A stretch of DNA of 64,000 nt from the NCBI GenBank assembly GCA_012295275.1, contig CM022672.1, positions 7,068,001-7,132,000 on the forward strand. The letters are read 5' to 3'. Made by a program: the position numbers and the translations under genes. Source of the stretch: Chrysomallon squamiferum. Taxonomy: Eukaryota > Animalia > Mollusca. Shown one piece after another: positions 4,035-44,593 of this stretch (the stretch's first letter is position 1; each line of letters begins with the position of its first letter). Under the pieces are notes generated by a model. It ran no database searches. It had not been told where the DNA came from and saw nothing but the letters and a program-made list of their open reading frames with translations.

Positions 4035-4469
4035 TTGTTTGTTTGGTTGTTACTTTTCTTGATTTGTGTTTCTTTTGTAATAATGTAATACTGCAATTAT
4101 ATAGAATCTTTTCATCACAAAGTCTCTCTTGATTGTGTGTGTCTCTAGGCCATATTAATCCTGCTTCTAGAAAAATGTTATTTCTTTTAATATTATACAA
4201 AATGCAGTATATGTTGAAAAATGACAATAATGAAAATGAATATGAAACTCAGCAGCTAGTCTTCTCAGCACAACAGATTAACAATTAAAATGTTTATTTT
4301 ATATGTTTATATCCATATTTGTAGACTGTCATGATGAGCTGGTAGGATGAAATCTTCTTTTCAGTTTATATTATTTATTGTTTATACTTATTCCAACATA
4401 ATGTTAAAACACATTATCTACATGGTTATGTTTGGTTTCAGTATGTGACTGAATGTTTAATGAACTGAG

Positions 4470-6479
4470 ATGTCTGCAAAGCACAGAAATACAGATTTAT
4501 TTTACAAAGACAATGAACACAAGACCATCGAGGTCCGAGGTTTCCTAGCAGAAACAAGTGATGACACACTTAAATGTTATTTTGAAAATCCTAGGAAAGG
4601 TGGAGGAGAAATTGCAGACTTCCTCAGGTTTGATGACGATAAAGTTGCATACATCACCTTTGCCGATGCTCAGGGTAAATAAGTATTATTGTCTTTTACA
4701 ATATGTACTTGTATACATATATATTCACATATTGGTTGTTTTTTTCTGTGTACTGGTAAAGTCTAAGAGCTAAAACAATAACTAGCAGGACATTTTTCTC
4801 CCAAACTGTATATGATAATAAATGTCCACTGATTATAAAGAAACAGATTATAAACTCTTTATTTTTTTCTGTACTATTTTATTGTTATTTAAGGTAACAT
4901 TATTATTTTGTTTCGTTTTTGAATGTAATATATATATATATATATATATATATTTTCATTATTCTTCAGTTGCCAGAAACATTGTTGGACAACCTCACAA
5001 GATTGACAATGTTGGACTTCAAGTACAGCTTATCAGTCAACCTGCTGAACAAAAACCTCTTCTCCTGTACACTGACAGGTTATTAATTAGTGGTATTAAT
5101 GAATCTACTACAAAAGATTGTTTGATAAATTATCTGGAAACCAGAAGTGACTGTGACATTGCTGATAACAACATTGTGTTTGGAGACAAGAAGGGACATG
5201 CAGTTGTCATATTTGATCAAATTCCAGGTGAACTTTCTGTTGTTACATATTCAGTTTTTTCTTCATTAGTTTGTTGTGTTTTATTCCTTTGTCTTTTCCT
5301 TTCTATATTATCCTTACCAAAATGTACTTTTCTCAGAGTAGCTAAATGAAAATACTAGAAATCTATCAACAGAGATAGGATTGTATTGTCCACTGAAATG
5401 TTTAAAATATTTGACAGCTTTGTGAAAAATGAAAACTTACTAAAAATATATTTGCTTTATAAAACAAGAATTTCTGCTGATTAAATGATTTATAGCATTC
5501 CTATTTTGTGAGTTAAAAAAAAGAAAACATTTTAATTTTTATTTCTTTATGATTAAATACAGCTTTAATGTTTATCACTTGTTGTTGTTCAGCATTCAAA
5601 TCAAATATAAATGTTGATATAATTTTGAAGAAGTCATACAGCTGGATTATAAATGTCATCTCAGTAACTTTGTGACTGTCAGAATTCTCATATTTCAGTG
5701 AAATTCTTTCCATGATATAGGTCATCATAGGTAGATAAAATGTGTCAAAAGCTGCGTGATTCATGTTTGTAATAATGTAGTAACTTGGCTCAACATTGAG
5801 CTGGATAGATAATTATTGACTCTGATGAAAAAAACTATTATTAATTAAAAGAGAAAAATCAAAAAAAGTGGATTGGCTAAATAGGTAATGTCACAGAAAA
5901 AGAATAATGATAACAGTTACACACAAGTATACATGCCTATATCTAAGTTTAATGATTTTGAAAGATTTTAACATTTCAAAAATTTGGTTAAATTGATAGT
6001 TATGATACATGAGCTGGAAGATTCCCTTATAAAAAAGACCTGGAAGATATAATTTATTGAAGATCTGAATGACCAGTGTTGTAGAAATGAAAGTTTACAA
6101 TGAATGACCCATTTTACCTATGGGTTTTGATAACTTTTTTCTTCTGTTACTATTAATTATTTTCATAATTATTTTTTCTTATCTCTTTATTTTATAAATC
6201 AAAGTGGTACACTACATTGCTTTTTGCCTTCTTCAGACCTGGAGAAACTACAAGAAAAATGTGCTAAAAAATCACTAGAAGGATCACAACTGACAGTCAG
6301 CCAGATTCCAGTTAATCCTGTGATGATTGTGCGAGGTCTAAGTGAGAACACTGATGAAGAGACGCTGTGTAACTATTTTGAAGGGAAACGTTCGGGGAAT
6401 GTGGCAGGTGTTGAGGTTGACAAAGTGAAGATGATGTTTGATGAAGGTTACTGCCTTGTGTATTTCAAAGACTATTCAG
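4470..6479 (+). CDS. Three PARP14/PARP10-type RRM exons (4470-4674, 4970-5227, 6237-6479), copy 1
   Basis: Motifs TIEVRG..DTLKCYFENPRKGGGEI..AYITF, LLISGINESTTKDCLINYLE and IVRGLSENTDEETLCNYFEGKRSG are typical of macro-PARP N-terminal RRMs. Confidence 0.85.
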
Positions 6480-8233
6480 GTAAAATAATTCAATTCACTG
6501 AAAGACCATAGTTTCAATTGCATATCTTAAATTATGATAAGCATTTTCTATTTGTTGTTATATGCAAAATGTATCTGAAATATTTTAATTCATATCTGAA
6601 ATGACACATATTGTCTTTCCAGTAATTGAACAGATCCTGACTGTAGATAAAGATAAAGGTCACAGGCTTAATGATGCTCATCTCGATGTTTCTGTTTTCT
6701 ACGAATGTCTGTTTGTTAAGCGAGAAGATGACAAGTTGTTTAACAGACCAACTCCACTGGTGATTAAGAATCTTGATAAATACAAAGTAAATTTTATCAA
6801 AGAATCAAAATTATCAAAACAACTACTTCAGAAAAACCTTGAACTTTGCCATGCTGATTTGTGCTGGTCAGATGGAGATGACACTTCAGTTATGCTAAAA
6901 TGTATCCTAACAGACAAGATCAAAAATGCTCATATGCTTTCACAAAACTGGGCTGATAATGCAGAGAAAACTCTACAGAAACATTTCAGTTCTCTGCTAG
7001 TTGAAACTATTTCTGTTTCACAAGAGATTATGGATGAACTGGTAAAAAATTTTGATACATCCATAACTGAAGATGTCAGAATTTTTGTTTTGAAAGAACT
7101 TTCAACAATAGTTGTTGCTGGACACTCAGACCCTGCTCTAAAATTAGCTGAACAACTGAAATTTACAATTAAAAATACAGAAGATGCATATGAAAGTAAA
7201 AACAAATAAAAGAAATTATTCATGATCTCAAGATAATCGAGTTACAACTACTCCAGGTGAGTGGTTTTCCTCAAAAGATAATGAACAAGTTTCCTGGACT
7301 GACTGTTGACATTTGCATTGAGAAAACTGAAATATCATTTAATGGAACACAAGTTGATATTTTTAAAGCTATTGCTGATATGTACAAATCATTTAAGGAT
7401 ATAAAAACATCCAAAATAAGCAGTTTCTCTGATAACCAATTGCAACTGCTCCAGAAGCAAACTGTCCGAGAATACATTGAAAAGAAAATATTTGGAAAAA
7501 ATCTAGTTGGGGTATGGGAGCTGTCTGATGGTCAGGTTTCAGTATTTACATTCAGTGATGCTGATGAACTTTCAAGGATGATTAAGGAATCAGTAGTTGA
7601 GAAGAGTGTGGACCTGGAAGCTGAAGCTGTTACTCTGTTATCATTAGACACATGGGAGGTCTTTACAACAGAACTGTCAGAGAAACACGACGTAGAAATC
7701 CTTCACAAACATGATGAAAACACTATTACTGTTACCTCCACAGACAATAGAATTGAGGTTGTAATTGACAAAATACATCAGTTCATTTCAGAAAATGCTC
7801 CATTCAGTCAAACTCTCAAGTTTGACTTGGGAATTCAGCACTTCATTCAGCAGTTTTGTCACAATGAAATAAATCAGATAATGTCAGACTTGAAAGATCT
7901 GCTGGTACAAATAGAGTATACATCTGATGGTAATGAATTTATCATAACAGCTACAAAGAAGGGAATAAGTTCAGCAGTGAAAAGACTGCGTGATTTGGCC
8001 AGTACAGTCAAACAGAAAAATCATACACACAAAAGGCCAGGTGTAACAAAAGTTCTTCAGTCACAGAGAGGAATTCAGTTTATTGCTGGTCTTGAACAAA
8101 GAGAAAGGTGCATTATTCAAGTAAAATGCAACAGCAGTATAAAAATATCTGAAGAAAATTCTCAAAACCTGGGTTTCACAACTTCCACAAGTAGAGATGC
8201 TAGAGGTAATGTTCTTTTGTCTGGATGCAAAAT

Positions 8234-8288
<55 letters not shown>

Positions 8289-11200
8289 AAAAAAGAAAAA
8301 AGAACTGAACTTGCAAAATAAAATATTTTTTCTTCTGATTTACAGATTATAATAAAATTTCACATTTTACTTTACAAATAAAAGTGAGTTAAAAGTTAAT
8401 AAAAAGATAATCATTTAAAAAATCTTTTTATAGTATCCCTATTTACATTTTTCTGAACCTTTTTTCATTCTTGTTTTGTTCTTTAATATAACTTACATAT
8501 GGCTAATTTCTTAATGTCAGAAAATATTATTTTCTTGTTAAATTTCTTTCACTCCAAACAGTGATGAATTTTTCTATAAATGTTTTTAATGTAGAAATGC
8601 TTGAGTCGTCTGATGTGGCTAGTATGAAGCAACATGATTTTGAAAATGAGAAGACAGTAGAGGTATGGATTCTCCTTATTTTTTAAAATGTGTTGGCAAT
8701 TTAACATATTAATCTTTTATAGTTGTCTACTTTCAGAATTATGTTTTTCTAAATTATTGATATTTAGGTTCATTTGTTTCAATACATTTTAATTATGTCC
8801 AATCAAAACAAAGGCAATGAGTTTCTGTCTCACCCACTAATGAAGGACAAAAATATCAATGGACAACAAAAATTAAAAAACAAAAAGAATTGTATAGCTA
8901 AAACTTTGTTATATTTTATATCTAGAAAGAAATCAGATTTATACTGAAATTATTTTTATAAAAAGATTTCATAAAAATAATAATTACCTTAATAAAAATG
9001 CAGTGAAACAAAAAATAAAGTTAATTTTTTCAAATTAAGTACCTGTATTTACAACAGAGCTACTTATACTCAAAATGTATTCAAAGTTTTTCAGTTTTGT
9101 TAATTTTAAAATGAATAAATAATGTGTATTGTTTGTAAAAGATGCATATTTATTTATCTTTTATTTGGGAAATGTACACATTTTGCTACTCTAGACTTTT
9201 AATTTCTAAACTTAATTCTTATATTTTAAACTTGTTTTGGTTGGAGATTTTGTATTTTCTAATTTTCGATCAAAGTTACCATTATAATAGTTTTATTTGT
9301 TAAAGCATTATTCATTTAAGTTTTTGGATGGTTGTTTCTGAATTCAACCAACTGTATTTTGGTAAAGTAAGCAAATAAATAAAGACAAGTCAAAATTCAT
9401 GATTGCAGATTAGGATAATTTCTATTATTTGCATCAACAATTACAAATATAAATTAAACATTCTCTTTGGGTTTCTTTACTGCTGAGTTTTTAAAATTTA
9501 ATTAAAATGTATCTAGACCATTTATGAGTAGTTTTTGATTTGGGAATATTTTAATTCCTCAAAATGATGGACATGAACAGCTGTTTGATCTGACAGTCTC
9601 TGTTATATTCTAGCTAAAACATATCCAATAGTGTCAACCAATACATTCCACTGTATTTTCTTCCTTTCCTCTTCATCAAGGTGAAATACCATTTCAACAT
9701 ATTTACAGAAATACATTTTCAAAAGAACCCTTTTAGCCTTAATTCATCATTAATTTTTTGATTTTGACTAAATGAATCAAATACATTATAAATATATTTG
9801 TCAATGCACTGTAATTTCATGGATTCAGTTCCAATATAAAAAGTAAGCAACAAAAGATTATATTTCAAATAATAACTAATGTCTTCATCAAAATTTCATC
9901 ATAAAAATCCAAAATTAACTGTCAGCATTTATGTGTGTGTTTTCTGTGTTATCCTATTTTTTTTTCATTTGGGATTTTTTCATTCACATTTCTTTATGAA
10001 CATTTTGATCAACAGTCTATTAATATATGATAAAACAAATATTTTCTTTTCTTAAAAGTTGATAAAGAAATTTGATTATCCATCTGTGTATATGTATAAA
10101 CCTCTGTTATCTTTTTTATTTAATTATTTTATTAATGAATATAAAAAAAATAATTGTATAAAACTACTGATGTAAGAATTTTAATTTCAGCATTCTGTAC
10201 AAGGTGACAGTGGAGTACACACTGATGCAGGCTTGTCAGGTGATCAAAAACCAACCCGTAGAAACAGAATATTTAACCATCCATCCATGGCAACAGGTAA
10301 ATAGGAATATAATCACTTTAAACAAATCACCTTTGATACAACACATCAAAACGTTTCATATGTCAAGCATTATTAGTGGTTTAAGAACAGGATGAATATT
10401 GCCAAATGTATTATAAGGTAAATATCATTAACTATATACAGAATAAAATAATCCAAACTGCATGTCTCTTCGTTGAAAGTTATAGTGATTTTACCATTAT
10501 CCATTGACCACCAAAAAGGGTACAAATCTACCAGTTGAAATGTCCCTCAACTGATTTTGTAAACTTAAGACAAATGGCTCAACGACTTTTATTATTATCT
10601 GAACTAGCCAGATATTCAATCAAGTTTTATGTTTCTCTTTGTAATATTAATGCCATTTTAGTTGAATGTTTTATTTATTTTTTATTTTTAGCTCAGTTTG
10701 GAGAATGTTGCCATGAAAACAAAGATGTTTCTGAGGTAACCAGCCAAATAGTTGATTATGAAGATATCTCTGAAATTTTTCTTTGCTATTTCTCTGATGA
10801 AATTCAGCATGCTGAACAGTGCATTCAGTTCATAGAAAAATTTTGTGCAGAGGAAACGACAGAAAAAAAATTAGAAGATAAAACACTGAAAATACTGAAT
10901 TCATCACAGGTGCCATTTCTTAATACTTATTTTCAAATTGTTGATTTGAGGTGAAAATCAGTTTCAATCAGCTTTAAACATTGTGTGTTTTACATCCAAA
11001 CAAGAAAAATACATAAAGGAAATATAATTAAAAATTTAAAGTAAATTTAAAAAAAATAATAAAAGCAATAAAATTTAAAAAGAGAAAAATTTGGGTTTAA
11101 CTTCAACAAATCAATACCTATTAATTTTTCCTTCAAACCTTTATTAGTTTTCAAATATTTTTGGTATGATCATCATAATTTAACTATGTCAAACTTGAAA

Positions 11201-12195
11201 CCTATTGAATTCATTATTGTTACTATCCTGTGATCTGAAAAATATGTCACCATGATAAAGCCAAATATCATTTTATCCTTTTTCTTGTTCAGCGAAGTGA
11301 CTTCTTATTATCTGCAAACAACAGTCTGTTCTCTATGCCAAAATTATCATATTTTGTACTTTCTTGTTTCTTTTATTTAAGTGTAAAAGAATCCGGAATC
11401 TTGAAAATATTTATCAAGTGAAGATGATACTGCAGAAGGAGATTGGACAAGTTTGCATTCAGGGATATCACCAAGATGTTTCAGATGCATTTGATGTTGT
11501 AATCAGTATCCTGAGAGAAGCTGATCATTTTAAGAGTGAATGTGAAAAAGCTGCGATACTTTCAAACCAGGCTCAGTGGTACTTCACTGATAAAGAACAA
11601 GAAACTCTTATAAAGTACGATAAAGATGTGAATGGCACTATAGAAAAAGCACATTATGATGGCTTTCCCACAGTCAGTTTGCAAGCTGGCAGGTTTAAGT
11701 ACATCATAGACTTTCAGAGCATAGAGGAATACCTTGCTGATAACAAATATGATTCTGTGAAAGTTGTTCGTGTGAATCTTATCAAAGGTAAAAATAGTTT
11801 CTTGCACATAAAATCATTACATATTTAGGTTAATGGTTTATTAAATGTGCAAAACCTAAAAAATTAAACACTTTTTATTTCTATCTGACAGATTCAAATG
11901 TCAAAACAATAAAACACACACACACACGTACACATATGCATTTTTGTAACAAATATGTAAATGAGTTTTATTTGTGTTTTGTCTGTTACAGTTCAGGATG
12001 AAACAACATCTGAGTTAGAAACTGTCAAAGACTCCAGAGGTGTTCAGAAAAAGTAAGTTACAATTTTAAAGGATTATCATATTGGACATAATAAATCAGA
12101 TAGTTATAAATTTCTGTCAAATATAGGCACAAATGAGAGACAAATACAAAAATGCCAGTTTGTATGACAAATATAATTATGATGAACATATGTGT

Positions 12196-12246
<51 letters not shown>

Positions 12247-12642
12247 GGGTTTGGGATCATCTCATTCAGCACATAGCAGTTGTGGTGAGTCTGTCAGTGA
12301 TCACACAAAACAAGTTGCTGGAACTACCAGCAGGTTTGTATGTTTTGCTTATATAGTGAAATAATTAATGGGTTTCTTTTCAAATCATATTATTAAATAG
12401 CATAGCATAAATATTCCAAAGCATTTAGACCACCTCATCACCAAGAAAGATATGATGTTCTTGATAGGATGAAATCATGAAGCTGTCTCAAAGATAGTGG
12501 AACAAAATACCACATGGTTAAATAAATCTCTGAACAAATATCTAAATATTGTCTTTCAATTTCACTCAAAAATAAAATGACTTTTGTTGCAACCCAGTAG
12601 ACTATTTTAGATAGGATCTTTTTATTTTAATACCAAAAAATA

Positions 12643-12691
<49 letters not shown>

Positions 12692-15337
12692 TTGTATCAT
12701 ATCTTTGTTTGTTCAAATTCAGATCAAATATAAATCTTTGGAAACTTTGATTGTTAAAATAAAGATAAGAATGAAGCTAAAAGGCAAAGTGCAGTTACAC
12801 TTAAATATAATTATGTACCAGAATTATGTACCTTGATTGCTTCAATCTTAGCTTAATGACATTCAAAACTATCATCTCTATAGATACAAAACGTTTAGTG
12901 AACTTTAAAAAAAAAATGTTTCTGTGAAAAATCTAATAGTAACACTAAAAATATTGAATCTAAAATAGTATAAATTAATTTTTTAAATGTTCTTAGGGAA
13001 ACATTAATTATTATTATCACTGGGTTATTATCATTTGTCATGTTAAATTTTTAGGAGACCATCAGAGTCTGGTTATGGACGTCAGAATACACAGATGTTT
13101 CAGCCTAATGGTAAAACAACTGATTATGTTACATAAAATGATATTTTGAAATCTGTAATCAGTCCTTAAAGATTTCTCATTTTTGACTTTTGGAGACTCT
13201 TTTATTTTAAGCAAAACCATGAAAAAATTAATGATATTTATCACTATCTTTGTCAAGTTATTTATGAAACATAGATGTTAAAGAACATGTTGTTTTTAAT
13301 ACAGTTTGTATAGTCAATTAGATTAAGTCTCAAATTCATTAGAATTGCATATTTTATAGAGAAGGACCAATTGCTGTGACTGGTGTTTGTCACCACAGTT
13401 GGACAGCTTCCCTATCACTATTTATTTCATGCTGTAGATTCTGCTTACTATGGTTAACAATTAACTGCAGCAGAATTGTTACTGATGCTTGTATTTTGTT
13501 AATTCCTGTTAAATAAGAAAATCTGTAATTGTTCAGTATGAAAAAATAAATGATTTGAAAATAATTCTTATTTCTTTCATCACTCTTGTTTTATTCCTTT
13601 TATTTATGAACAGCACCTGTTGTAGTTTTTTATTCTTATTTCATGTGAATTTCTGATTTTATTGACATTTATTCATTAGATTCAGATAAATGTATTGAAT
13701 CCGTATGGAACCAGAGTGACAGAGAACATGTAGTTTCAGTGTCTGGGGAAAAAGGAGAAAACATCACTGGAGCTTTGGAAAAGTTGAAATCCACTAACTG
13801 TCCAGTATATATTTACTTTTCTCAACTTTTGTCTAGTAGCAATGTTAAAATAATTTATAATGTACCTATTTCTGGTTTGTTAGGAATTGAAATTATTACT
13901 TTTTATCATCAGATTAATGCAGTAAGATTTCTAAATGTAATTCTGTTTGATTGTTTGATCAAATTAGTTTACAATATTAAAGCCAGCATTAACCACTTGG
14001 ATCACCCAAAGATGAACTTAAATAACACAGTTACAATTTTGTTTCATGCTTTATTACTATGAAAAGAACATAAAGTAGCTTTCAGAATATAACTCCCACT
14101 TACATACTGTACATTACACAAAAAATAAAATACTTAAAAAAATAAAATGTTAATCATCACAGGTGTTTAGCTATTCTTTTCAATAACCATTGTCCAGTAA
14201 CACAGAAATTCTTTATTTATAAAGATATAGCTGATAAAAGTATAGGTTTTCGTCTATAAAAAGTAGTTACTTTAAACATTTGAAATGAATTTTCATTCAA
14301 AACGTTTTACGAGTATGTCCTGTGCAGATTGAATTCTTTCAGTAACCTGGGTTTTTATTCACAAACACATCAGTAGAAAGTTTTAAAGGAAAAGTCACTG
14401 TCCCTCTGAATAGAAGTTAGAACAATGTGTTTTACTTATTCTCCTAGGAAAGCAAAAATACAAATAGTGAAAATGATGTTGGTAGTTTTGAAATAATTGA
14501 CAACACAAATGAAGGTACTGAGAGCTTATCAGCAGTGAATCCACAAAATGTTATAATACCAGGAAACAGTAAGTACGTTTTCCTGCACTTTACATTTCTT
14601 CTAGTAATGTCACATTTGTAAAAACAGAGTTTATTAATCTTAACCACTAAGCAAAATTAACTCACATTAAATTCCTTAACTTTTTTTTTTAACTCTGAAA
14701 TCGCAAAAACTAATTTTTCAATTTTTATTTTATATTGTTGATGGTTATTTTCACAATTTTGGGTAATATCCCAGTCAGATAATCAGTTTGATGTATATAA
14801 TCTCTCACAATTTTTTTCATTTTCACATGTGTTTTTTGTATATATATATACACATTTTTATTGATCTCCTTTTAACTATTTATCATAAGACAGACACTAT
14901 ATCAGGAATTTAATTCAAAAATAAATAAGTATGAACACACATCCGATAATTTTACTATTATGGATGTTGTAATGAAAATTACTTAACTGCATAAATAGCC
15001 TTCCAGCGGACTTCAAGCAAGCAAAAATGTGGTGAAAGACAAGTCTTTAAATTAATAATAACACTAGAATTTAAAATCTGTTATATTATTATTACTAATT
15101 AGAAGTTCTGATCAACTGATTAATTAGAATGTGTCTTTTTCACATTGTAATGTTCTAATAAGAAACACAAACATACAACCATGCATTACTTGTAAACAAT
15201 AATGGAAAAATGCCATTCAGATATTTCCATAATGAAATTAATAGTACACTTTTCTTTTAAATAATGGAGTGTGAAATTTAATTTTAATTTTAATTTTAAT
15301 TTTCATTTTCATTTAATTATTTTATTTTAATTTATCA

Positions 15338-15380
<43 letters not shown>

Positions 15381-18300
15381 TGTTTTGTTTTGTTACATTG
15401 ATTTGCTTAGTTCTTTTATTAGCAAAAAAAATCTAAACTTCTGCCAGCTTTGATAAATTAGTGGTGTTTTGCAATGTGTCCCTGTAATCAATGTGCTTTA
15501 TGTATTTCTTCAGTAAATGTCCAAACACAATGAAGATTGTTATTTCTAATTACATTTATTCACAAACCTGGGTGTATTTAATTAGGTTTGATGATAAACA
15601 ATAATTTGAGCAATGCAATTTTTGAACAATCATTAAATTTAAGCAATAGTGTGGAATTTAACTCAAGGCTAATGTTTTCTATACTTTTTTCAGCAACTGT
15701 AACATAGTGTAGATAATCACTTACTCAGTTAAACCTTTTCTCACATGAAGTTAAATTTTATAGTTACTTGTTCTTTTACTAATCTCCTTTTTCCTTGTGT
15801 TCAGAACAGATGAACTTTTATAAATGTAAATCTGAGATAACATTGATCCCAGTTTGGATTTGAAAGAATTAATATGAGGATCCTTATGTTAAATTTTGTT
15901 TATTCATGTGGCCATCATCATACTTAGAATGAACATTATTTGAAATTTGTTTCCTCTAAAGATAAAGAAATATATATAATATAGGTCATAATCACATACA
16001 TTTCATGCTCAGCTAATTACATATCTTCTTAGTTTTTTTTGAAAATGATACAACTGGATATAAAATGTGTATATTAATAAAACATAAATAATCCTGAAGT
16101 GAAAAAAATATACTATGAAGTAAATGTGTAAATTGTTTTTATTTGTGTTTTGTCTGTTACAGTACAGCATGAAACAACACCTGAGTCAGAAACAACTAAA
16201 CAGTCCACAAGTGTTCAAGAAAAGTAACAATTTTAAATGATTATAATGTTGGACATTATAAATTTCTCTCAAATAGCAGACACAATGAAAGACAAATACA
16301 AATATGTCAGTTTGCATGATAAATTAAATCACAATATACATGTATATGAGGGGTTTCATTCTTTCTGCATTAAGATGGATATTAGCTGATTATTTGAAGG
16401 TTTCTTGAACTATACTGATTTGGTTAATGTTGGTTGTTTAACAGTCCTTTAGATAAGAACCTTTTTTTATTTTTTTAATAAAAACTAGATCTGCCTGTGA
16501 ACCTGACATGGTGTCCAGTGATCCTACCTGTATTCTGTTACAAGCAGTCCAGTCACTTAATGGAAATATGGATTCTGTGTGGAAAAAATTAGCTCGAAAT
16601 AAACATACACCAACTGCCATTTTGTATCCACACCCTATCAAGTTGGAAGAGAAAGCAATAATTGTTTTTGAAAAGTCAGAAGGTAAGAAATATCATACTA
16701 TACTTTCATAATTGAATTACATTTTTATTGATGTGTTAAGAATATTCCTATCTTCATTCATGTCAGACATGTTTATTTCTATTTTAATGTTACTGTTATT
16801 TTTTAAATATTGTATTTCTTCAACACTGACAAATAAAAACAATTTTAGAAAATCACCTAAAACTGTTAGTTCCTTTAACAAAATTACTATTATTGTTAAA
16901 CTAAAAAATACTTTCTAAATTTTTTTTTTCATTTTTAAAAATAATCACAATGATTACAGTATCATTAAATTTTGTCCAGCAAATTCTGTTTGGGTGGTGG
17001 AATGTTTTACTCACACACAAACACACACTTGTACATACATTCACACAAAAACACATTATTTTGGGCCTGCTATTCCTACTAATAGTGTTCTGTTATTTTT
17101 TTATTTACTGGAAAAATATCATCATTGGTTGTTTTTTATTTTCCCAGATGTTAAACAAATCTTGGACAAAAATTACTTTCTGAACATGAGCCACAAAAAC
17201 TGCAGCCAGTAAGAATATTAAAATACTAAAATATTAAAATTACAAAACTTAGCTTTCTTCAAAGAGAGTAAGGTTAAATAAAATTTTAAGTAAAATAGAA
17301 TTAAATATCACATACATTTTAAACAAACCTGGTTAATAAATTTTCAGCATGAAATGTTACAAACTGTTCTATAAATAGTATCTTATATAATCATAATAAA
17401 TTAATTTACTAGTGCAGATGGTACATATCTTATTATTCTTAGGACAGGTATTGGACTTTCTCTATATAAAAGATTTCTGTAAATATTTCACTTCATACAT
17501 CTAGGAAATGAAACATTATTTTAATAATTTATTTACTTTACTCTGTATACATGTGTTATATTCTGTCTATCATCTTTTTAGCATCCCATAAACAGCAGCT
17601 CTCAAATAGAGAGAAAAATATTTGAAAAGATATCTCAGGATAAAAAACTAAAATGGGAATTCAGAGATAAAACAGGACTTGATTTTCCCAAAACAAATCA
17701 GATTACAGGTAACTTTTTTCAACTTGTGGCTGCAGACAACTTCTTCCGTCTTATATGTCAAACTGAAAGTAAGAAACCAAAGCTTGAAATTGATTTGATT
17801 CTATCTGATGCCATCAAAAAGTTGAATATTACCGAAAAAGAACATGTAAAATACATTCCAATTCACAATGACAAAATGTTATTAATATTTGAAAAAGACT
17901 CAGATGAAGCTAAAATGATCCAAAACAGAATTGAGGCACTGAACAGAGAAAACATCAGGATAGAGAATGCATCACTGAAACAAGAAGAGATCAAATCAGT
18001 TGTAAACAGTTTACAAGATTCTACACAAGATGTTTACTGTGCTTATATTCCACAACAAAACATGGTTGCAGTTTTCAGTGAAGATAGAAACACACTGAAT
18101 TTAGTGAAAAGGAAACTTCAGGTGAAATTGGGACTAATAAAACAAAGAGGTCGATCTAATAGAAAATTTACTTCTTCTAAAGCTGTCAGCTCTGAAGAGA
18201 AGAATCAAACAACACCATCCATTCAGAATGTGTCAACATCCACTTCAACAACATCCAGTGTTCACCCACTTGTCAAAGGCAAACATCTTGACGTGATGGT

Positions 18301-21300
18301 GTACAAAGGTAATATCACTCAGCTGTCAGTTGAGGCTATTGTAAATGCTGCTAATGGTCATTTATCTCACGGAGCTGGAGTAGCAAGAGCAATAGCTGAT
18401 GCAGCAGGAGAAGACTTGGTTAAAGAAGGAAACAAGTTTGTTAGAGAGCAAGGACCAATTGCTGTGACTGGTGTTGTTGTCACCACAGCTGGACGACTTC
18501 CATATCACTGTGTACTTCATGCTGTAGGTCCTGTTTACTATGATTACAAGGACAAGTCAGAATGTTTGGAAGATCTCTGTAAAACAATACTGAGATGTCT
18601 GTGTGAGGCCAGCAAACAAAATGTGAAATCTGTAGCAATTCATTCCATCAGTTCAGGTATTTAATTATCATAAATATTTTACTTAGTTAAATAAAATAAT
18701 GTGAACAGATATTAATTTGAAATAAATTGTGTTCTTTATCTGAATTTCAAGTTAGCAACTTCACAGATATCTTTCCCTTCATTGTTTATAAAATTCTAAA
18801 ATATTAATTGAATCAGATATTTCTTGGATCAGTTGTCTATGCATTTGCACATGGTTTGCCTTGTAAATTTGCCTAAAAATTATTGATATTTGGTTTTCTA
18901 GGGTATCAAAATTGTAATAATCATAGAAATATCCAATTACATATTTGTATTGGTATTAATATAAATGTTTTGTTATGTGAATTTAATTTATTTCAGGAAT
19001 CTTTGGTGTTCCAAAGGAATCTTGTGCTGAGATGTATGTGAGAGCTGTCATGTCATTTAACTCGGTAGTTTCTGGAGGAAGTCTGAAAGAAGTTCACTTT
19101 GTTGACATTAGTGACAATATGCTGCAGTTAATCAGCAATGAGTTTATCACAAAATGGGATACAAAACTTGATGATAAAATTCTGGAAAGAGATAAAAGAT
19201 TTATTGATGAACATCTGCTTGCAAGTAAGTCTGTCTCAGTCAAACATGTGAATGCTGCAGCAGCAGGAGATATGAATCACTCAACAACATCAACAGATAA
19301 GTGTGGCATTCAAGTCATTGTTTACCAAGAAGATATTTTTAAAGTTGACTGTGATGCAGTTGTCTGCTGGAAAGATCCCAGTTTTTCAGGAGAAGATCAC
19401 GCAATAGCAAGAGCAATATATCAACAAGCTGATGGTAATTACAGAGAGAGATTAAAAGAAATTAAAAAGAAGATCCCTTTCCAGGAGCGTAATAAGACAG
19501 TTTTCAAGGCTTATGTAAAGAAACATTTTCTGGTCTTCCATGGAGTGATTGAAAAGTCAAATCCAAGTATAACTGATTTCCATGAGGTTTTGACAAAAAT
19601 TATTGTAAAAGCAGATAAAGACATGATGCAATCAATTGCTATTCCAGTTTTTCGATGTTTCAAAACAGGTACGTTAATGGTTTTTTTTTTTTACTCAAAA
19701 ATATATATTACATTATGTTGTTACTGACACTGGAATTCTTAAAAATTTAAAAATATGCAAAGTAACATCTTTTATATTATGTATTAAGATAAAGCAAAGA
19801 GCAGTTTCCAGTAAATGGAATATGTTTTCTCATTTAGATGTTAAGTTTGCTATAACAGTAGATGTATTTTTAATTTCCAATATGAAATTCCTATTGTAAT
19901 TATCTTACAGGTTATTTTACACATTTGTGTACTTTAAAATCAGTTTAATTTAGTGACATTTTCTTATATGATAAATCATTTCCTTTTTGCAGACACTGTC
20001 AAGAAATTCACAGAAGTACTTTGCCAGAGTGTGAAAAATTTCACAACAAACAAAGAACATTTTGCCTTGAAGCAGATACACATTGTTGACACTGATGACA
20101 AAGTTGTAAGTTCTGTTAGCACACTTGTTGAAAACAGTGGAGTAAATGTCTGGGCTTCATGCAATGAAACTGATGTCTACAAGAACGAAAGTTCTCCAGC
20201 ACAACATGCATCATCCCAGCATTCAGATCACACAGATCATGTTTGTCCAGTTTGTCTGGATAAAATGTCAAATGCTCTGAAATTGGAGAAATGTGGCCAC
20301 AGTTTTTGTAAAGATTGTATTGATACACAAATGAAATACAAACCTGTTTGTCCAATCTGTGGAATGTTGTATGGTGTTCTGACTGGTGATATGCCTACAG
20401 GAGGAACAATGCGTGTTGATTTTGATAAGTGGGGACTTCCTGGATATGAAAAATGTGGATCTTATCGTATCACTTACTCGTTTCCAGATGGAAGGCAAAC
20501 TGTAAGTACTGTAAAATGGTTCTACAGTAGTTCAATGAGATATTTTTCTAAATACAAACACATACACAGATATACATTTGTTTACCATTACTAGATGTGA
20601 TCAGCAATTATGATTTCTTCAAATCTAAAATAAACAATCAAAAGTAATCAGTGAAGCGAAATTTAACTGATACAAATTAATACATTTCTAAAGCCTTTTA
20701 TACATACATACATATATATGTATATATACATATATATGCTGAATGTTCTCAAGGAACACTTTGTCCGTGGCTGTATTCATCAACTGGTTTTAAAAAAAAA
20801 AAAAAGTGTGAATGTAGGCATGTTACAGACACTGTAAAATTTCAATTTAAATGTTCCATCTGGTTTTTGAATAATATAATACCAGACAGATTTAACAACA
20901 TCAGTCTTTTCATAAACTAACCATCTTTACTGAAATTTATAAATAATCTAACTTTCTTAAAGAATCAGAGTGAACATTTATTGTTTTTGCTATATGATAA
21001 TATATTTATTGTTTTTGCCTTTTTTTCCTTTTTATCATTATCAAATTTTCATTCTGTTGGTCTTTTAGATGCAAAGATTACAGTACACTAGGGAAAATAA
21101 TTATATAAATGCAGAGAGAGTCAAGAACATACATACATACATACATTCATACATATATATATACCCCAATATGAGATATTGTTTATATTAGCACATATGG
21201 TTAATTCTTTTTAACAATAAAATTCATTTTATAATTATTGAATTTTTTATTTGGTATGTTTGGAAGTCCCTCTGACAGAGGATGTGGGACAGTTGCCTTT

Positions 21301-22647
21301 TTTGCCCCGTTTGCCCTCTGATAAATCTGTCCCTGTTCTCAAGTTAAATTTAATCAGCACTGTTGGAATATTACAAAATGCTGCACTTTATATATTTAAA
21401 TACCACTACTAATAACAATAAAAAAAATGTATAGCAAATCTTGATGTTGTTCTACAATTTGTTTATACAACTGTTTTATATAAATTGTTTTTCAGAAAGA
21501 ACATCCTAATGAAGGACAGTGGTATAAGGGTATTACCCGCTATGCTTATTTACCAGATACACCAAAAGGTCGCAAAGTAATTGCCATGTTACATGTTGCT
21601 TGGGAACGAAGACTGACATTTACTGTTGGAAGATCAGTCACAACTGGATATGATGGAGTCATAACATGGAATGACATTCGTCATAAAACAAGCAGAAGTG
21701 GAGGCCCAGACAAGTAGGTTCTCATATAATCCCTTAAATATGTAGACCATCTTAGTAGTAAAGTTCTCAGGTTTGTAATAATACATCACCATAAGCTTAC
21801 TAAGTAAACCTTCCAGTGTGAATGTGTTTCTTTACCTCATTAAAAATGTTACTTTTAACATTTGAGAAAAATACTATTGAATTGAAGTTGATATAATTAA
21901 TTTGTTTTAGGATAATTTAATTAGATAAAGAATGAATTGAAGTTGACATGGGAAACCTGTTTTAGAAATTAATATCATTTTATTAATGGTGTCAGCTATA
22001 ATAATTATAAGAAAAAGAGTTTAAAATTTAAATTTAGATTTAGCTGTAAATGTTTTGTTGTGAATATTAATTGGTGACTTTTGTACTATTTATTTACATG
22101 TTGTTGTGTGTTCTAGTTTTGTTTCACATGTATTTACATAGGCTAAGTGTTTGCCAGAAACACTGTCCTGTCATGACTGACCAGTTGTCTTATCCATGCT
22201 TCTTATTTCTTCATTCTGAAACTTTGTATAAAAATATCAATCTATCCTGTACATTCACAGTATATTCGTCTTACAAGTGAAATGATTTTGTTTTTCTAAT
22301 TGGAGGATATTATAATCAACAGAGTTTATATAATTGTGTGTACATGTGTATTTTATTGTTTATATCCTTGTTGCTTCTTTAGTATTAAGAATTTATAAGC
22401 CAACATTAATAAAGTTTATATTGTTTTGAGATTATCAGTGAACTGTTTTGTGACATAAATTTTTATCATACATTATTTCAGTTCCATATTTTAATATAAT
22501 ATTAATGTATTGTTTCTCTCTCTTTATAGTTTTGGTTATCCAGATCCTGGCTATCTAGATCGTGTGGAAGAAGAACTGTCAGCCAAGGGAATCACTGAAG
22601 AAAGTATTAAAGATCCAAAGTACAAGACACTCACTGGAACCTTTTAG
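4470..22647 (+). CDS. PARP14/DTX3L-like: Multi-exon chimeric gene, copy 1: PARP14-like RRMx3-KH array-WWE + linker/RRM-like/KH-like + Macro-Macro-RING-DTC (DTX3L-like E3 ligase); one frameshift at 7198-7202
   Basis: Predicted exons: 4470-4674, 4970-5227, 6237-6479, 6623-8205, 8595-8662, 10191-10296, 10692-10909, 11382-11787, 11992-12052, 13055-13110, 13680-13804, 14448-14568, 16163-16223, 16489-16682, 17148-17208, 17596(or 17582)-18656, 18997-19668, 19993-20501, 21496-21713, 22530-22647. All introns are GT-AG and phase-compatible except the A5 frameshift and the ambiguous 17.6 kb acceptor. Sum 6344+1 nt = 2115 codons. Confidence 0.75.
6623..8205 (+). CDS. Large exon encoding a PARP14-like KH-domain array, interrupted by a 1-nt frameshift
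   Basis: ORFs 6601-7209 and 7257-8288 join if AGTAAAAACAA gains one A. Repeated beta-G-helix KH-like segments (TIVVAGHSDPALKLAEQL, EISFNGTQVDIFKAIADM). Confidence 0.7.
11382..11787 (+). CDS. KH-like + WWE domain exon, copy 1
   Basis: VCIQGYHQDVSDAFDVV followed by QWYFTD..KYDKDVNGTIEKAH..KYIIDFQSIEEY..VKVVR, matching the WWE that precedes the ART domain in PARP14. Confidence 0.8.
13358..13458 (+). pseudogene. Decayed intronic fragment of the Macro1 coding sequence
   Basis: AAGGACCAATTGCTGTGACTGGTGTTTGTCACCACAGTTGGACAGCTTCCCTATCAC... aligns to ~18450-18548 with indels. Confidence 0.8.
17596..19668 (+). CDS. KH-like + Macro1 (MacroD/PARP9/PARP14 MD1-like) + N-terminal part of a degenerate Macro2, copy 1 (exons 17596-18656, 18997-19668)
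   Basis: VYKGNITQLSVEAIVNAANGHLSHGAGVARAIADAAG..VLHAVGP..AIHSISSGIFG..LKEVHFVD; second unit IVYQEDIFKVDCDAVV..SIAIPVF. Confidence 0.9.
19993..22647 (+). CDS. DTX3L-like: End of Macro2 + C3HC4 RING + Deltex C-terminal domain, copy 1 (exons 19993-20501, 21496-21713, 22530-22647)
   Basis: CPVCLD..CGHSFCKDC..CPICG..YG..TGDMP.GGTM..LPGY..Y.FPDG.Q.KEHP..AYLPD..GRKV..RRLTFTVG.S.TTG..ITWNDIRHKT..FGYPDPGYLDRVEEELSAKGI; stop TAG at 22645-22647. Confidence 0.92.
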
Positions 22648-25600: not shown

Positions 25601-25797
25601 AAATCAGATGAAAAATGATTCATTAAAAAATGGTAAATAATTTCAAATTTATTGAAACAATAGCATTAATTGAAACTTGATAAACGCTTTGAGAAAAATT
25701 ACAATCCAGTCGTGCATAAACATTTTACAGTGCAGTCATTTTCTTCACGTGTTTAGGAAATCTAGAAATTAAGATTGTAATATGTGTGTGGGTGTGT

Positions 25798-29066: not shown

Positions 29067-29191
29067 GTCTAGATAAATAAATAAATGAAGGGAAATAACT
29101 GGCCTTTAAAATATTTATTTCTGTTAAAAGTAAATAAAATTTAATTTACTTCTTGCTTTCGTAAATTGCCCCACTTTCCATATTTCACTCA

Positions 29192-29229
<38 letters not shown>

Positions 29230-29367
29230 TGCGTGCGTGTGTATGTTCGTATAAGAGCGCTTCTGAAATTTGAATTTACCGCCGCCAAATTCGATAATTA
29301 TGTTGATTTCCGGAATTGAGAGTTATCGATCTTTAGTCGATCAAAGTCCGATAGCAAGCTTTTCCTT

Positions 29368-29869: not shown

Positions 29870-29936
<67 letters not shown>

Positions 29937-32900
29937 TTGTTTTTTTGCTTGTTACTTTTCTTGATTTGTATTTCTTTTGTAATAATGTAATACTGCAATT
30001 ATATAGAATCTTTTCATCACAAAGTCTCTTGATTGTGTGTGTCTGAAGGCCATATTAATCCTGCTTCTAGAAAAATGTTATTTCTTTTAATATTATACAA
30101 AATGCAGTATATGTTGAAAAATGACAATAATGAAAATGAACATGAAACTCAGCAGCTAGTCTTCTTAGCACAACAGATTAACAATTAAAATGTTTATTTT
30201 ATATGTTTATATTTGTAGACTGTCATGATGAGCAGGTAGGATGTAATCTTCTTTTCAGTGTATATTATTTATTGTTTATACTTATTCCAACATAATGTTA
30301 AAACACATTATCTACACAGTTATGTTTGGTTTCAGTATGTGACTGAATGTTTAATGGACTGAGATGTCTGCAAAGCACAGAAATACAGATTTATTTTACA
30401 AAGACAATGAACACAAGACCATCGAGGTCCGAGGTTTCCTAGCAGAAACAAGTGATGACACACTTAAATGTTATTTTGAAAATCCTAGGAAAGGTGGAGG
30501 AGAAATTACAGACTTCCTCAGGTTTGATGACAATAAAGTTGCATACATCACCTTTGCCGATGCTCAGGGTAAATAAGTATTATTGTCTTTTACAATATGT
30601 ACTTGTATACATATATATTAACATATTGGTTGTTTTTGTCTGTGTACTGGTAAAGTCTAAGAGCTAAAACAAATAACCAGCAGGACTTTTTTCTCCCAAA
30701 CTGTATATGATAATAAATGTCCACTGATTATAAAGAAATAGATTATAAACTCTCTATTTTTTCTCCACTATTTTATCGTTATTGAAGATAACATTATTAT
30801 TTCATTTCATTATTCTTCAGTTGCCCAAAACATTGTTGGACAACCTCACAAGATTGACAATGTTGGACTTCGAGTACAGCTCATCAATCAACCTGCTGAA
30901 CAAAAACCTCTTCTCCTGTACAGTGACAGGTTATTAATTAGTGGTATTAATGAATCTACTACAAAAGATTGTTTGATAAATTATCTGGAAACCAGAAGTG
31001 ACTGTGACATTGCTGATAACAACATTGTGTTTGGAGACAAGAAGGGACATGCAGTTGTCATTTTTGATCAAATTCCAGGTGAACTTTCTGTTGTTACATA
31101 TTCAGTTTTTTCTTCATTAGTTTGTTGTGTTTTATTCCTTTGTCTTTTCCTGTCTATTATCCTTACCAAAATGTATTTTTCTCAGAGTAGCTAAATGAAA
31201 ATACTAGAAATCTATCAACAGAGATAGGATTGTATTGTCCACTGAAATGTTTAAAATATTTGACAGCTTTGTGAAAAATGAAAACTTACTAAAAATATAT
31301 TTGCTTTATAAAACAAGAATTTCTGCTGATTAAATGATTTATAGCATTCCTATTTTGTGAGTTAAAAAAAAGAAAACATTTTAATTTTTATTTCTTTATG
31401 ATTAAATACAGCTTTAATGTTTATCACTTGTTGTTGTTCAGCATTCAAATCAAATATAAATGTTGATATAATTTTGAAGAAGTCATACAGCTGGATTATA
31501 AATGTTATCTCAGTAACTTTGTGACTGTCAGAAATTCTCATATTTCAGTGAAATTCTTTCCATGATATAGGTCATCATAGGTAGATAAAATGTGTCAAAA
31601 GCTGCATGATTCATGTTTGTAATAACGTAGTAACTTGGCTCAACATTGAGCTGGTTAGATAATTATTGACTCTGATGAAAAAAACTATTATTAATTAAAA
31701 GAGAAAAATCAAAAAAAGTGGATTGGCTAAATAGGTAATGTCACAGAAAAAGAATAATGATAACAGATACACACAAGGTATACATGCCTATATCTAAGTT
31801 TAACATTTCAAAAATTTGGTTAAATTGATAGTTATGATACATGAGCTGGAAGATTCCCTTATAAAAAAGACCTGGAAGATATAATTTAATGAAGATCTGA
31901 TTGACCAGTGCTGTAGAAATGAAAGTTTACAATGAATGACCCATTTTACCTATGGGTTTTGATAACTTTTTTCTTCTGTTACTATTAATTATTTTCATAA
32001 TTCTTTTTTCTTATCTCTTTATTTTATAAATCAAAGTGGTACACTACATTGCTTTTTGCCTTCTTCAGACGTGGAGAAACTACAAGAAAAATGTGCTAAA
32101 AAATCACTAGAAGGATCACAACTGACAGTCAGCCAGATTCCAGTTAATCCTGTGATCATTGTGCGAGGTCTAAGTGAGAACACTGATGAAGAGACGCTGT
32201 GTAACTATTTTGAAGGGAAAGGTTCGGGGAATGTGGCAGGTGTTGAGGTTGACAAAGTGAAGATGATGTTTGATGAAGGTTACTGCCTTGTGTATTTCAA
32301 AAACTATTCAGGTAAAATAATTCAATTCACTGAAAGACCATAGTTTCCATTGCATATCTTAAATTATGATAAGCATTTTCTATTTGTTGTTATATGCAAA
32401 ATGTATCTGAAATATTTTAATTGATATCTGAAATGACACGTATTGTCTTTCCAGTAATTGAACAGATCCTGACTGTAGATAAAGATAAAGGTCACAGGCT
32501 TAATGATGCTCATCTCGATGTTTCTGTTTTCTACGAATGTCTGTTTGTTGAGCGAGAAGATGACAAGTTGTTTAACAGACCAGCTCCTCTGGTGATTAAG
32601 AATCTTGATAAATCTAAAGTAAATTTTATCAAAGAATCAAAATTATCAAAACAACTACTTGAGAAAGGCTTTGATACCATAACTCTCAACTTTGACTTGG
32701 GAATTCAGCACTTTATGCAGCAGTTTTGCCAGACTGAAATAATTCAGATAATGTCAGACTTGAAAGATCTGCTGGTACAAATAGAGTATACATCTGATGG
32801 TAATGAATTTATAATAACAGCTACAAAGAAGGGAATAAGTTCAGCAGTGAAAAGACTGGGTGATTTGGCCAGTACAGTCAAACAGAAAAATCATACACAC

Positions 32901-34313
32901 AAAAGGCCAGGAGTAACAAAAGTTCTCCAGTCACAGAGAGGAATTCAGTTTATTGCTGGTCTTGAACAAAGAGAAAGGTGCATTATTCAAGTAAAATGCA
33001 ACAGCAGTACAAAAATATCTGAAGAAAAACCTCAAATGTTCCACGGTAATGTTCTTTTGTCATGTATTCAAAAGACTTTTTTTTAAAATTATTAATTAAT
33101 TAATTAATTAATTTATTTATTTATTTATTTAATTTATTTATTTATTTATTTATTTTTAAAGAAAAACAAATTAGCTGAATTTTTCTTCTTTGAAACTGTA
33201 ATTGTTTCCTTCTGATTTACTGTTGAATATAATTTCACATTTTGCTTTACAAATTTCAAGGTAAAAAGGTAATAGAAGGATATTCATTTAAGAAATCTTT
33301 TAATATCATCTTTATTTTTTCTGTAGTTGTCTTTTTTGTAATTGTTGTTGTTCTTGTTCTTTAATATAATTTATATATGGCTAATTTCAGTATGTCAGAA
33401 AATATTTTTTCTCACTAAATTTCTTTCATTGCAAATGGTGATAGATTTTTCTATAAATGTTTTTGATGTAGAAATGGTGGAGTCATCACATGTGACTGAT
33501 ACAAACCAACTTGAATTTGAAAATGAGAACTCAGTAGAGGTATGAATTCTCCTTATTTTTCAAATGTGTTTATGATTTAATGTATTAATCTTTTACATTT
33601 GTCTACTTTCAAAAAGTTATGTTTTTCTAAATTATTGATATTTATATTCATTTGTTTGAATAATTTTTAATTGTTCCCAAGCAGACAAAAAGCATGGTGT
33701 TTCTGGCTCACCCAGAACTGATAGACAAATCTTAAAAACAAAAGACTTGTCTATCTTAACTTTGGACGAAATTATTTAAAAAAAAAAAACTTCATGTAAT
33801 TAATTACCTGAATGAAAATGCTGTGAAATAAAAAATAAAGGATCTGTATTTACACCTTTTTTAAATAATGTGTGTCTGTTTGTATGTGTATTTGCTTGTG
33901 TGTGTATGCAAATTAAATACATATATATATATATGTTTAACATTTTTTTTTTCTGCTCTGGAAGTTGTAATTAGGACATATTTTTTGAAACATGGCCACA
34001 CATTTAACATTTTTAAATTTTCAGTCCAAAGCAAATTTTACAGCAAGTTAAGCACTTTTAACTGTCCCTACATTTCTCAGTATGTATTAGTCAATTAGAA
34101 TTTAATCTGTTTATTAAAAAGCAAATACAAATGCAGTTATTAATTGCTAGATAATTCTTTGAATTCAAATCATAGCTATGGTGTTGGTACATATTGAGAA
34201 ATCTAATAAAGTCAAGTCAACAATGTCAAGTATTTCAAATAATTAGTTATATTATTTGCTTCAATAAATATGGTTATGAGATTAAACTTTGGTTTCTTTA
34301 AGTTTTAATTTTT

Positions 34314-34344
<31 letters not shown>

Positions 34345-34386
34345 GGAATTAAGCAAAAATTTAAGTTAAAAAAAAAATGTCTAGAC

Positions 34387-35330
34387 CAGTGTTTCCAAAC
34401 TGTCTTTGAGCCATGAATCACATTAACTCCTCAAAGATTTTTCTGTCCACTTTGTCATAAAATGCAGCCGACTTCTGAAGAAAAAGTATAATACAAAAGC
34501 CAACATAGAGCTAGTCATAAGAGATATTCTTTATATAGATTTCCATTATTTTTTTTTTTTTAAATTTAAATATAATATTTATTATAATATTTACTCTGTG
34601 TTTCCAATTATTTTTTACTCAAAGGATCAAATAAAAATAGGATATTTTTTTCCTTATTATTGTTAGTGACACATTTCTCACCAACAAAATGATTACTTCT
34701 TTGGTCAAAAATAGGTTAAGATGCACAATGCTGCAACATTATTCTTTTCATATGACATAATATGATGTCATCTAACCAAACACATTATGTTATTTAAAAA
34801 AAAACATCCATCAGTCATGCAAATCTGTGTAAGCTGATTGTCGGCTGCAGTCAAAATGATGACACTGCCGACCTAGGGAACACCACTGACATGGATGCCA
34901 AACTAGTGGTTATTGCTGACACCATAGCGTCAACCAATGTCATAATCACCACTGTTTAGTTTTGTTTTGTCAGCATTTTTGGGGAACATGTCCAATCACT
35001 TTCATGTGTGGAAAAATGTTTAAAAATTAGTCTTTTTTTTTGTAACTTTAACTGTCATATATTAATATTTTTTGTACAGTTTGATAATCAACAGAATCAT
35101 TCCTGTTGACACCACCATATAATACAACGTATTTCACAAGCATTAATTCATAATACGTTTATGGATGATAAAGGTGGTCAATATATAAAAGTAAACAATA
35201 ATAGGTTACAGCTGAAAATGTGATGAGGGGGATAATTTCTGATAAAATTTGATGCAGAAAAAATAAGAAGTATTAATTAAATGGCAGTATCCAGTACAGC
35301 CATAACTAATTTGTCTTAAAACCTGTCAAA
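34387..35330. mobile_element. ~950-bp copy-2-specific intronic insertion starting with a hAT-like end
   Basis: Absent at the matching site of copy 1 (~9515). Begins GTCTAGAC|CAGTGTTTCCAAAC, a Charlie-type target site and terminus. The right end is not clear. Confidence 0.4.
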
Positions 35331-40677: not shown

Positions 40678-40710
<33 letters not shown>

Positions 40711-41110
40711 CATATAAATGCTGAATATTCTCAAGGAACACTTTGTCCATGGCTGTATTCATCAACTGGTTTAAAAAAAAAAAAAGTGTGAATGTAGGCA
40801 TGTTACAGACACTGTAAAATTTCAATTTAAATGTTCCATCTGGTTTTTGAATAATATAATACCAGACAGATTTAATAACATCAATCTTTTCATAAACTAA
40901 CCATCTTTACTGAAATTTATAAATAATCTAACTTTCTTAAATAATCAGAGTGAACATTTATTGTTTTTGCTATATGATAATATATTTATTGTTTTTGCCT
41001 TTTTTTCCTTTTTATCATTATCAAATTTTCATTCTGTTGGTCTTTTAGATGCAAAGATTACAGTACACTAGGGAAAATAATTATATAAATGCAGAGAGAG
41101 TCAAGAACAA

Positions 41111-41146
<36 letters not shown>

Positions 41147-42573: not shown

Positions 42574-42612
<39 letters not shown>

Positions 42613-44523: not shown

Positions 44524-44593
<70 letters not shown>

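Follow-up and report, generated by a model that had tools for sequence, protein, structure and literature searches.

The window analysed here is a stretch of 64,000 nucleotides from the mollusc Chrysomallon squamiferum (assembly GCA_012295275.1, contig CM022672.1, positions 7,068,001 to 7,132,000 of the forward strand), and its AT-rich, intron-containing DNA is of animal type. We favour, with moderate confidence, the reading that a gastropod gene for a macrodomain-bearing E3 ligase of DTX3L type is present here in two tandem copies and likely encodes one chain (∼2000–2100 residues in copy 1) with its macrodomains, RING and DTC placed behind a PARP14-type RRM-KH-WWE front. An earlier note, made from the sequence alone, had described a fusion of PARP14, PARP9 and DTX3L with this domain order in two copies. 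Both the order and the duplication were borne out by a Pfam run on 16 window segments and by comparison of the window with itself, which placed the copies at ∼122–25587 and ∼25728–44977 and showed that a stretch at 11.8–17.9 kb is found in copy 1 and not in copy 2.

Domain order and affinities of the two halves

The segments held, in order, three RRMs, a PARP14-type KH array, a WWE, a macrodomain (Macro1), a weak second macrodomain (Macro2), a C3HC4 RING and a DTC. RRM_PARP14_3 (PF23085) matched with expectation values (E) of 3e-10 and 8e-7, with the middle RRM at 0.004, and KH_PARP14_1 (PF23084) matched the KH array (E 3e-5). The WWE (PF02825) was recognised in copy 1 (E 1.6e-7) and copy 2 (E 6e-9), followed by Macro1 (PF01661, E 4e-27), the RING (PF13923, E 5e-12) and the DTC (PF18102, E 6e-29); Macro2 was below the Pfam cut-off (E 1e-3) and was recovered by a family profile (E 1e-33). 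The hallmark scaffold of PARP14, namely RRM1–3, a KH array and KH8-WWE, is present, as is the Deltex hallmark of a C-terminal RING followed by a DTC, which is spliced in RNA through the joints 20501>21496 and 21713>22530. An RNA contig (X3 record 15) also joins exon 2 to exon 3 of copy 1.

The absence of a PARP catalytic (ART) exon from the window, as the earlier note had it, was upheld. A profile built from six non-snail ART domains gave a best E of 2.1 over 2754 six-frame window peptides, and tblastn for ART in the window returned nothing at E<=1, whereas control profiles for DTC, Macro, RING and RRM recovered their exons in both copies. Pfam, profiles and the splice chain revealed no macrodomain between the KH array and KH8-WWE, where two short linker exons alone are found; by the domain order given in PMC13224862, we infer that these stand where PARP14 has its three macrodomains.

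The proteins of the window are closest to those of the snail Gigantopelta aegis. The copy-1 KH array is 43–45% identical to the Gigantopelta proteins P0003 and P0022, and the KH8-WWE module is 62% identical to P0001, in which PF23254 and PF02825 both exceed the cut-off. The KH array scored 248–267 bits on Gigantopelta PARP14-type arrays, one of which lies directly before a macrodomain as in PARP14, compared with 32 bits on Pomacea P0009 and <=30 on DTC-bearing homologues. In a midpoint-rooted tree, the RING-DTC was sister to Gigantopelta P0002 (support 99/95), with Haliotis Macro-RING-DTC proteins as neighbours (92/86). The tree had 29 rows, of which 28 were named homologues from the 146 DTC-bearing matches, and no DTX1/2/4 or DTX3 rows. 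Among three solved structures matched by the DTC, human DTX3L was the best (E 4e-24). The RING-DTC, the RRM/KH front and the macrodomains together place the predicted protein with the macrodomain-bearing DTX3L clade, and its front end is likely a derivative of a PARP14-like paralogue that lacks the three macrodomains and the ART and was set before a macrodomain-DTX3L back end. Pomacea P0009 carries part of the same KH array before a similar macro exon, and the exchange of modules between PARP14 and DTX3L may therefore be older than this snail lineage.

The long exon that encodes most of Macro1 gave a structure model with a predicted local distance difference test score (pLDDT) of 82.5. The small domains ahead of Macro1 are likely KH-like, their KH identity being a lead; a single-sequence model reached a pLDDT of 63, with no fold match at E<=0.001. 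Sub-threshold structural matches from the Atlas link residues 209–402 of P0001 to PARP14 KH8-WWE, and the part after 401 to the KH domains of DTX3L and to other KH proteins, while the WWE matched solved structures weakly (best E 0.03). Exon 16489–16682 appears RRM-like by eye and had no match among 167 sequences.

The border between the WWE and the macrodomain exons

In copy 2 the WWE and macro exons are separated by a 247-base-pair intron (37456/37704), which, as claimed earlier, joins phase 1 to phase 1 in an open frame, and the 3′ half of this copy has no entry exon other than 37704. Two Gigantopelta proteins cross the same border. P0001, a KH8-WWE-Macro protein, aligns on both sides of it in copy 2, with query positions 264–404 matching the WWE exon (63%) and positions 402–537 and 545–841 matching 37697–38569. 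P0003, which has three RRMs, KH domains and two macrodomains but no WWE, reaches as one chain from RRM1 via KH8 to the same macro exon. For the family, one gene running from the RRMs through the WWE into Macro-RING-DTC is likely on these comparisons.

The arrangement in copy 1 was followed with contigs from three RNA runs (X1–X3) and one run of unrecorded kind, aligned to positions 4300–23000. The junction proposed for this copy in the earlier note, 11787 to 17596, had to be given up, as it is out of frame and runs into stops, and the same is true of 11787 to 17582 and to 17599. The contigs instead use exons that the note had not listed, with joints at 14568>16163, 16223>16489, 16682>17148 and 17208>17582 and then on through the exons that follow, up to the last one of the DTC. 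Given two added single bases, three open routes lead from the WWE to the macro exon, yielding 1998, 2080 and 2119 residues. One contig piece, in X1 record 2, breaks off exactly at the WWE donor 11787, and another 228 letters of the record follow; this donor is used in RNA. Copy 1 also retains, 104 base pairs past the donor, a relic of the copy-2 acceptor, whose local alignment with 37457–37800 scores 101, with 200 shuffles giving at most 85. The candidate linker exons at 11992–14568, the first of which is a duplicate of the 16163 exon by self-comparison, would connect to the WWE exon. A joined form of the gene, with a single RRM-KH-WWE-Macro-RING-DTC chain, is in our judgement moderately probable.

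The chief alternative is that copy 1 consists of two units, a truncated PARP14-like RRM-KH-WWE gene devoid of macrodomains and ART, followed by a stand-alone macrodomain DTX3L that starts at 12.4–13.7 kb, the joined form being confined to the broken copy 2. The 3′ half does have its own upstream exons, which copy 2 lacks, and an in-frame ATG lies in exon 13055–13110. The macro exon that originally stood behind the WWE has decayed in copy 1, and the present one is reached through exons of its own. Stand-alone Macro-RING-DTC proteins such as P0002 and P0004 are also the commonest type (104 of 166, with no RRM detected) among our retrieved homologues, a set enriched by the query with P0002. Nevertheless, RNA shows the WWE donor in use, the exons can all be read through in open chains, the border is spanned by two Gigantopelta models, and the window profiles found neither an ART nor any other terminal exon for the 5′ half. 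We consider two separate units rather unlikely.

Contig depth offers a further hint of two units. In X1–X3 the depth per exon base rises at exon 13680 from ∼12, 10 and 5 to ∼110, 31 and 27, and the bin with exon 11992–12052 (12.1, 10.0 and 5.2) lies close to the WWE contigs (12.3, 11.8 and 4.6). The near-equal values would fit a joint from the WWE to 11992 and the step would fit a second start, but contig depth cannot rank the parts of a gene and carries neither conclusion. Between these exons, at 12412–13035, contig depth was observed in all three RNA runs without a called exon, and loose ends at 12907 and 12921 are common to them; this signal may be a repeat or a first exon of the 3′ half.

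Several observations, besides the depth step and the decayed macro exon, weigh against the joined chain. No joint leaving 11787 was among the 15 of 65 RNA joints listed, and the X1 record that ends there does not cover 13743 or 14462; the earlier claim of one gene has partial support, from the copy-2 junction and from P0001 and P0003. Most aligned contigs are 90–99% alike to the window, and hence paralogues or other alleles, and not copy 1, may be their source. The small exons were chosen by eye, so that their fit in phase is partly a product of selection. Both copies are defective in the assembly. Each of the four Gigantopelta models holds only part of the chain, and P0022 has, after its WWE, unrelated sequence and a PARP14-type array. 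Lastly, no retrieved protein unites a WWE with a RING-DTC. Pfam listed a WWE in none of 146 DTC-bearing matches (123 at E<=1e-4 and 23 at 1e-5), a search that is insensitive to distant WWEs and that missed the WWE of P0022 at 1e-5. A WWE family profile, narrow enough for distant WWEs to escape, found two of the 166 homologues, both from Gigantopelta. The copy-2 WWE exon, used as a query against proteins of 236–2000 residues, retrieved P0001 alone from 972 candidates (P0022, at 2022 residues, lies outside the range), and of 25 pattern matches in a metagenome scan with P0001 none was confirmed. Apart from these results, P0022 (XP_041369501.1, RRM-KH-WWE) and the single-exon macro protein P0088 (XP_041369505.1), both from Gigantopelta, have near accession numbers, which suggests a split annotation of a similar locus.

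Integrity of the copies and their catalytic residues

The phase-compatible chain described in the earlier note holds at the copy-2 junction, yet as assembled copy 1 stops at residue 431 and copy 2 at residue 1092. Copy 1 needs one base near 7200 and one in exon 17148–17208. Contigs of X1, X2 and X5 show an extra base at 7197–7202, and at the latter exon X3 record 17 has 64 letters where the window has 63. As both gaps fall in A runs and the contigs supply the bases, assembly error is the likely cause. Copy 2 has lost ∼990 bases of the KH exon in frame, and several gains of single bases (frameshifts at 38951–39620) precede its stop, which falls within the second macro exon. Its DTC exon (41508–41741) shows a net gain of 16 bases that is no homopolymer slip. 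Copy 2 is probably a decaying duplicate.

These defects raise a second alternative, which we regard as improbable, namely that the family turns over fast, that both of its members here are dead or dying, and that the working, expressed gene is a paralogue elsewhere. It would account for the stop and the Arg in place of the catalytic His in copy 1 (see below) and for the KH deletion, frameshifts and DTC gain of copy 2. Few RNA contigs are at least 99% alike to the window (25 of 161, 26 of 156 and 10 of 49), and between the copies the non-synonymous proportion (pN) is about equal to or above the synonymous one (pS) in the RRM and Macro1 exons, where changes are few. On the other side, the copy-1 gaps lie in A runs and three runs carry the missing base near 7200, as assembly error predicts; pN/pS is ∼0.5 in the KH8-WWE and RING exons; and the Arg form itself may be expressed.

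This last point concerns the DTC active site. In the alignment, Tyr138 and Glu152 of the structure 3pg6 correspond to the published Y719 and E733 of DTX3L, and His126 is therefore the catalytic H707. The copy-1 DTC has Arg at the His707 position and keeps the equivalent of Glu733. A G>A change at 21680, which yields a His codon, accounts for 53.2 of the depth of 107.8 in X1 and for the whole depth in X2, X3 and X5. X1 appears to hold both forms; because about half of its depth is without the change, the Arg form may be expressed. His occupies this position in 132 of 139 homologue motif matches, and Potamilus P0023 also has Arg. Copy 1 as assembled would be unable to attach ubiquitin to ADP-ribose. 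All eight ligands of the RING are present. Macro1 displays the loop-1 Asn/Gly and a loop-2 Ile-Phe, in line with the Asn/Gly and the hydrophobic plus aromatic residues that PMC10221186 lists for macrodomain hydrolase activity, and its nearest solved folds and sequences are PARP14 macro 1 (E 4e-24) and PARP9 macro 1. The translated Macro2 is without the hydrolase-type loop features.

The ubiquitin and ADP-ribose chemistry of Deltex RING-DTC modules is described in PMC10810221 and PMC7615817, and human DTX3L, DTX2, PARP9 and PARP14 (these sources and PMC11251020) serve as the model for every step of a putative mechanism. The RRM/KH front would bind single-stranded nucleic acid and partners, and the WWE and Macro1 would find ADP-ribose written by separate PARP enzymes. 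The RING would recruit E2-ubiquitin. The His/Glu pair of the DTC would attach ubiquitin to the ADP-ribose 3′ hydroxyl in the His form, the Arg form acting on protein only, and Macro1 would erase the ADP-ribose mark. An immune role for the locus is suggested by analogy only.

The contact between human PARP14 and DTX3L lies at the border of KH8-WWE and the DTX3L KH domains (PMC11251020). A stronger version of our reading, which we put forward tentatively and think somewhat doubtful, is a snail chimera in which a PARP14 scaffold without macrodomains and ART was grafted on a macrodomain DTX3L exactly at this border. The product, expressed as one chain, would combine an ADP-ribose ubiquitin ligase with an eraser and two readers of ADP-ribose. 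Within the family, active DTCs with His would be kept in use beside Arg forms that serve as decoys or act on protein only.

The coordinates of the features are collected in Table 1. Each gene copy has just upstream of it broken DNA-transposon-like coding remnants (1283–2855 and 27320–28668) that were duplicated along with the gene and have the look of the hAT type. On the minus strand, ENPP-like phosphodiesterase genes (PF01663, E 2e-52 and 1e-50) stand in tandem at 50900–60500, at least two of them complete and others partial. ENPP-like enzymes cleave nucleotide diphosphates including ADP-ribose and NAD, and their position beside DTX3L-type genes may be a chance neighbourhood.

Table 1. Positions within the window of the exons and fragments discussed in the text
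Feature	Position	Strand	Evidence
Copy 1 exons 1–3, three PARP14-type RRMs	4470-4674, 4970-5227, 6237-6479	+	PF23085; splice sites and phases
Copy 1 exon 4, PARP14-type KH array, one base short near 7200	6623..8205	+	PF23084
Two short linker exons	8595-8662, 10191-10296	+	Open, phase-compatible
KH8-WWE module, phase-1 donor at 11787	10692-10909, 11382-11787	+	PF02825
Decayed short-intron acceptor of the copy-2 kind (AG before 11892)	11850..11910	+	Local alignment
Candidate linker exons, not in copy 2	11992-12052, 13055-13110, 13680-13804, 14448-14568	+	Canonical AG/GT; open phase-compatible chains
Decayed macro fragment	13354-13456	+	blastn to both macro exons
Exons leading into the macro exon, last one base short	16163-16223, 16489-16682, 17148-17208	+	RNA joints, X1–X3
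Long exon, two to three small alpha/beta domains and most of Macro1	17582..18656	+	PF01661
Macro1 end and degenerate second macrodomain	18997..19668	+	RNA joints on both sides
C3HC4 RING and DTC start	19993..20501	+	PF13923, PF18102
DTC exons with stop; Arg codon 21679-21681	21496-21713, 22530-22647	+	PF18102; alignment to 3pg6
Copy 2, same exons as copy 1	30364..42221	+	WWE exon 37051-37456 spliceable to 37704

Relatives and comparison with known systems

The architecture behind the WWE is widespread. The macro exon as a query matched 21 longer proteins, 11 of them with Macro, RING and DTC, and P0002 searched against 1.84 billion representatives gave 928 matches at E<=1e-30. By profiles, Macro, RING and DTC occur together in 128 of the 166 homologues, 24 of which have an RRM as well, and Pfam detected RRM_PARP14_3 in 18 of 123 DTC-bearing proteins. 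The RRM-Macro-RING-DTC order is seen in Potamilus, Pecten, Mizuhopecten, Branchiostoma (where the protein is named DTX3L), Amphiura, Ptychodera, Saccoglossus and Lingula, thus in bivalves, a lancelet, a brittle star and hemichordates among others. In the Atlas, clusters that combine DTC with Macro are most frequent in Cnidaria (score 0.96) and Mollusca (0.89). Other arrangements were also observed. Haliotis P0006 and P0026 place a TRIM-like N-terminal RING and B-box before Macro-Macro-RING-DTC, and in P0008 of Lingula anatina (1918 residues) a PARP catalytic domain (Pfam E 5e-13) comes after RRM-Macro-RING-DTC-Macro-RING-DTC. P0008, which may be a merged model, would have an ART together with a Deltex ligase and go further as a fusion than the window gene.

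These results bear on how new the gene is. According to a preprint (bioRxiv 10.64898/2026.04.23.720386), most metazoan DTX3L carry an RRM, DTX3L is described as being without a WWE, and PARP9's appearance falls together with the disappearance of the macrodomain from DTX3L, macrodomain-bearing forms being earlier. Human DTX3L has an RRM and five KH domains (PMC13224862) and PARP9 is confined to jawed vertebrates (PMC10221186), so that the earlier description of the locus as a Rosetta-stone protein joining PARP14, PARP9 and DTX3L overstated its novelty. The note had also held that a common and already annotated architecture would speak against its idea; this is the situation for RRM-Macro-RING-DTC, which is common and in part annotated as DTX3L, and not for a PARP14-type front with a WWE. 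A DTX3L with such a PARP14 scaffold and a WWE was not found described in the accessible parts of the preprint and of PMC13224862, PMC10221186, PMC10810221, PMC7615817, PMC4245714 and PMC11251020, although Figure 1d or the supplements of the preprint may show mollusc or WWE forms. The core design is therefore known already, and what looks new is the PARP14-type scaffold including the WWE, together with the Arg for the DTC His in copy 1.

A hydrolase-type macrodomain beside a Deltex ligase in one chain provides a model for the balance between erasing and ubiquitylating the same mark, and dozens of invertebrate proteins already offer such a chain. The PARP14-type front with its WWE, if true, would show an exchange of PARP14 and DTX3L modules in molluscs, and the His/Arg pair at the DTC catalytic site is a ready comparison.

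Among known systems, the closest relatives are the Gigantopelta proteins XP_041354984.1, XP_041376690.1, XP_041360710.1 and XP_041369501.1, which tile the whole chain at 42–79% identity per exon-sized piece; they lie on four different contigs and none holds all of the domains. The invertebrate macrodomain DTX3L proteins (Potamilus KAK3607180.1, Mizuhopecten XP_021355425.1, Pecten XP_033731448.1 and Branchiostoma CAH1268224.1) share three front RRMs, one to three macrodomains, the C3HC4 RING and the DTC, and the window gene differs from them by its PARP14-type KH array ending in KH8-WWE. DTX1, DTX2 and DTX4 have a WWE and a RING-DTC in one chain, as is likely for the window gene, and are not known to have an RRM, KH array or macrodomain, whereas the single WWE of the window gene follows a PARP14-type KH8. 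Human DTX3L has the order RRM, KH, RING and DTC in common with the window gene (PMC13224862), but is without macrodomain or WWE, and copy 1 has Arg at its His707. PARP14 shares the three RRMs, the KH array and KH8-WWE, and its macro 1 resembles Macro1. The window gene, unlike PARP14, has no ART, and its macrodomains follow the WWE rather than precede KH8, in exons that align with Macro-RING-DTC proteins. With PARP9 it shares two macrodomains, the first of hydrolase type, beside a RING-DTC; PARP9 keeps an inactive ART and, as it occurs in jawed vertebrates only (PMC10221186), the resemblance is functional and not by descent, and the window gene is no PARP9 fusion.

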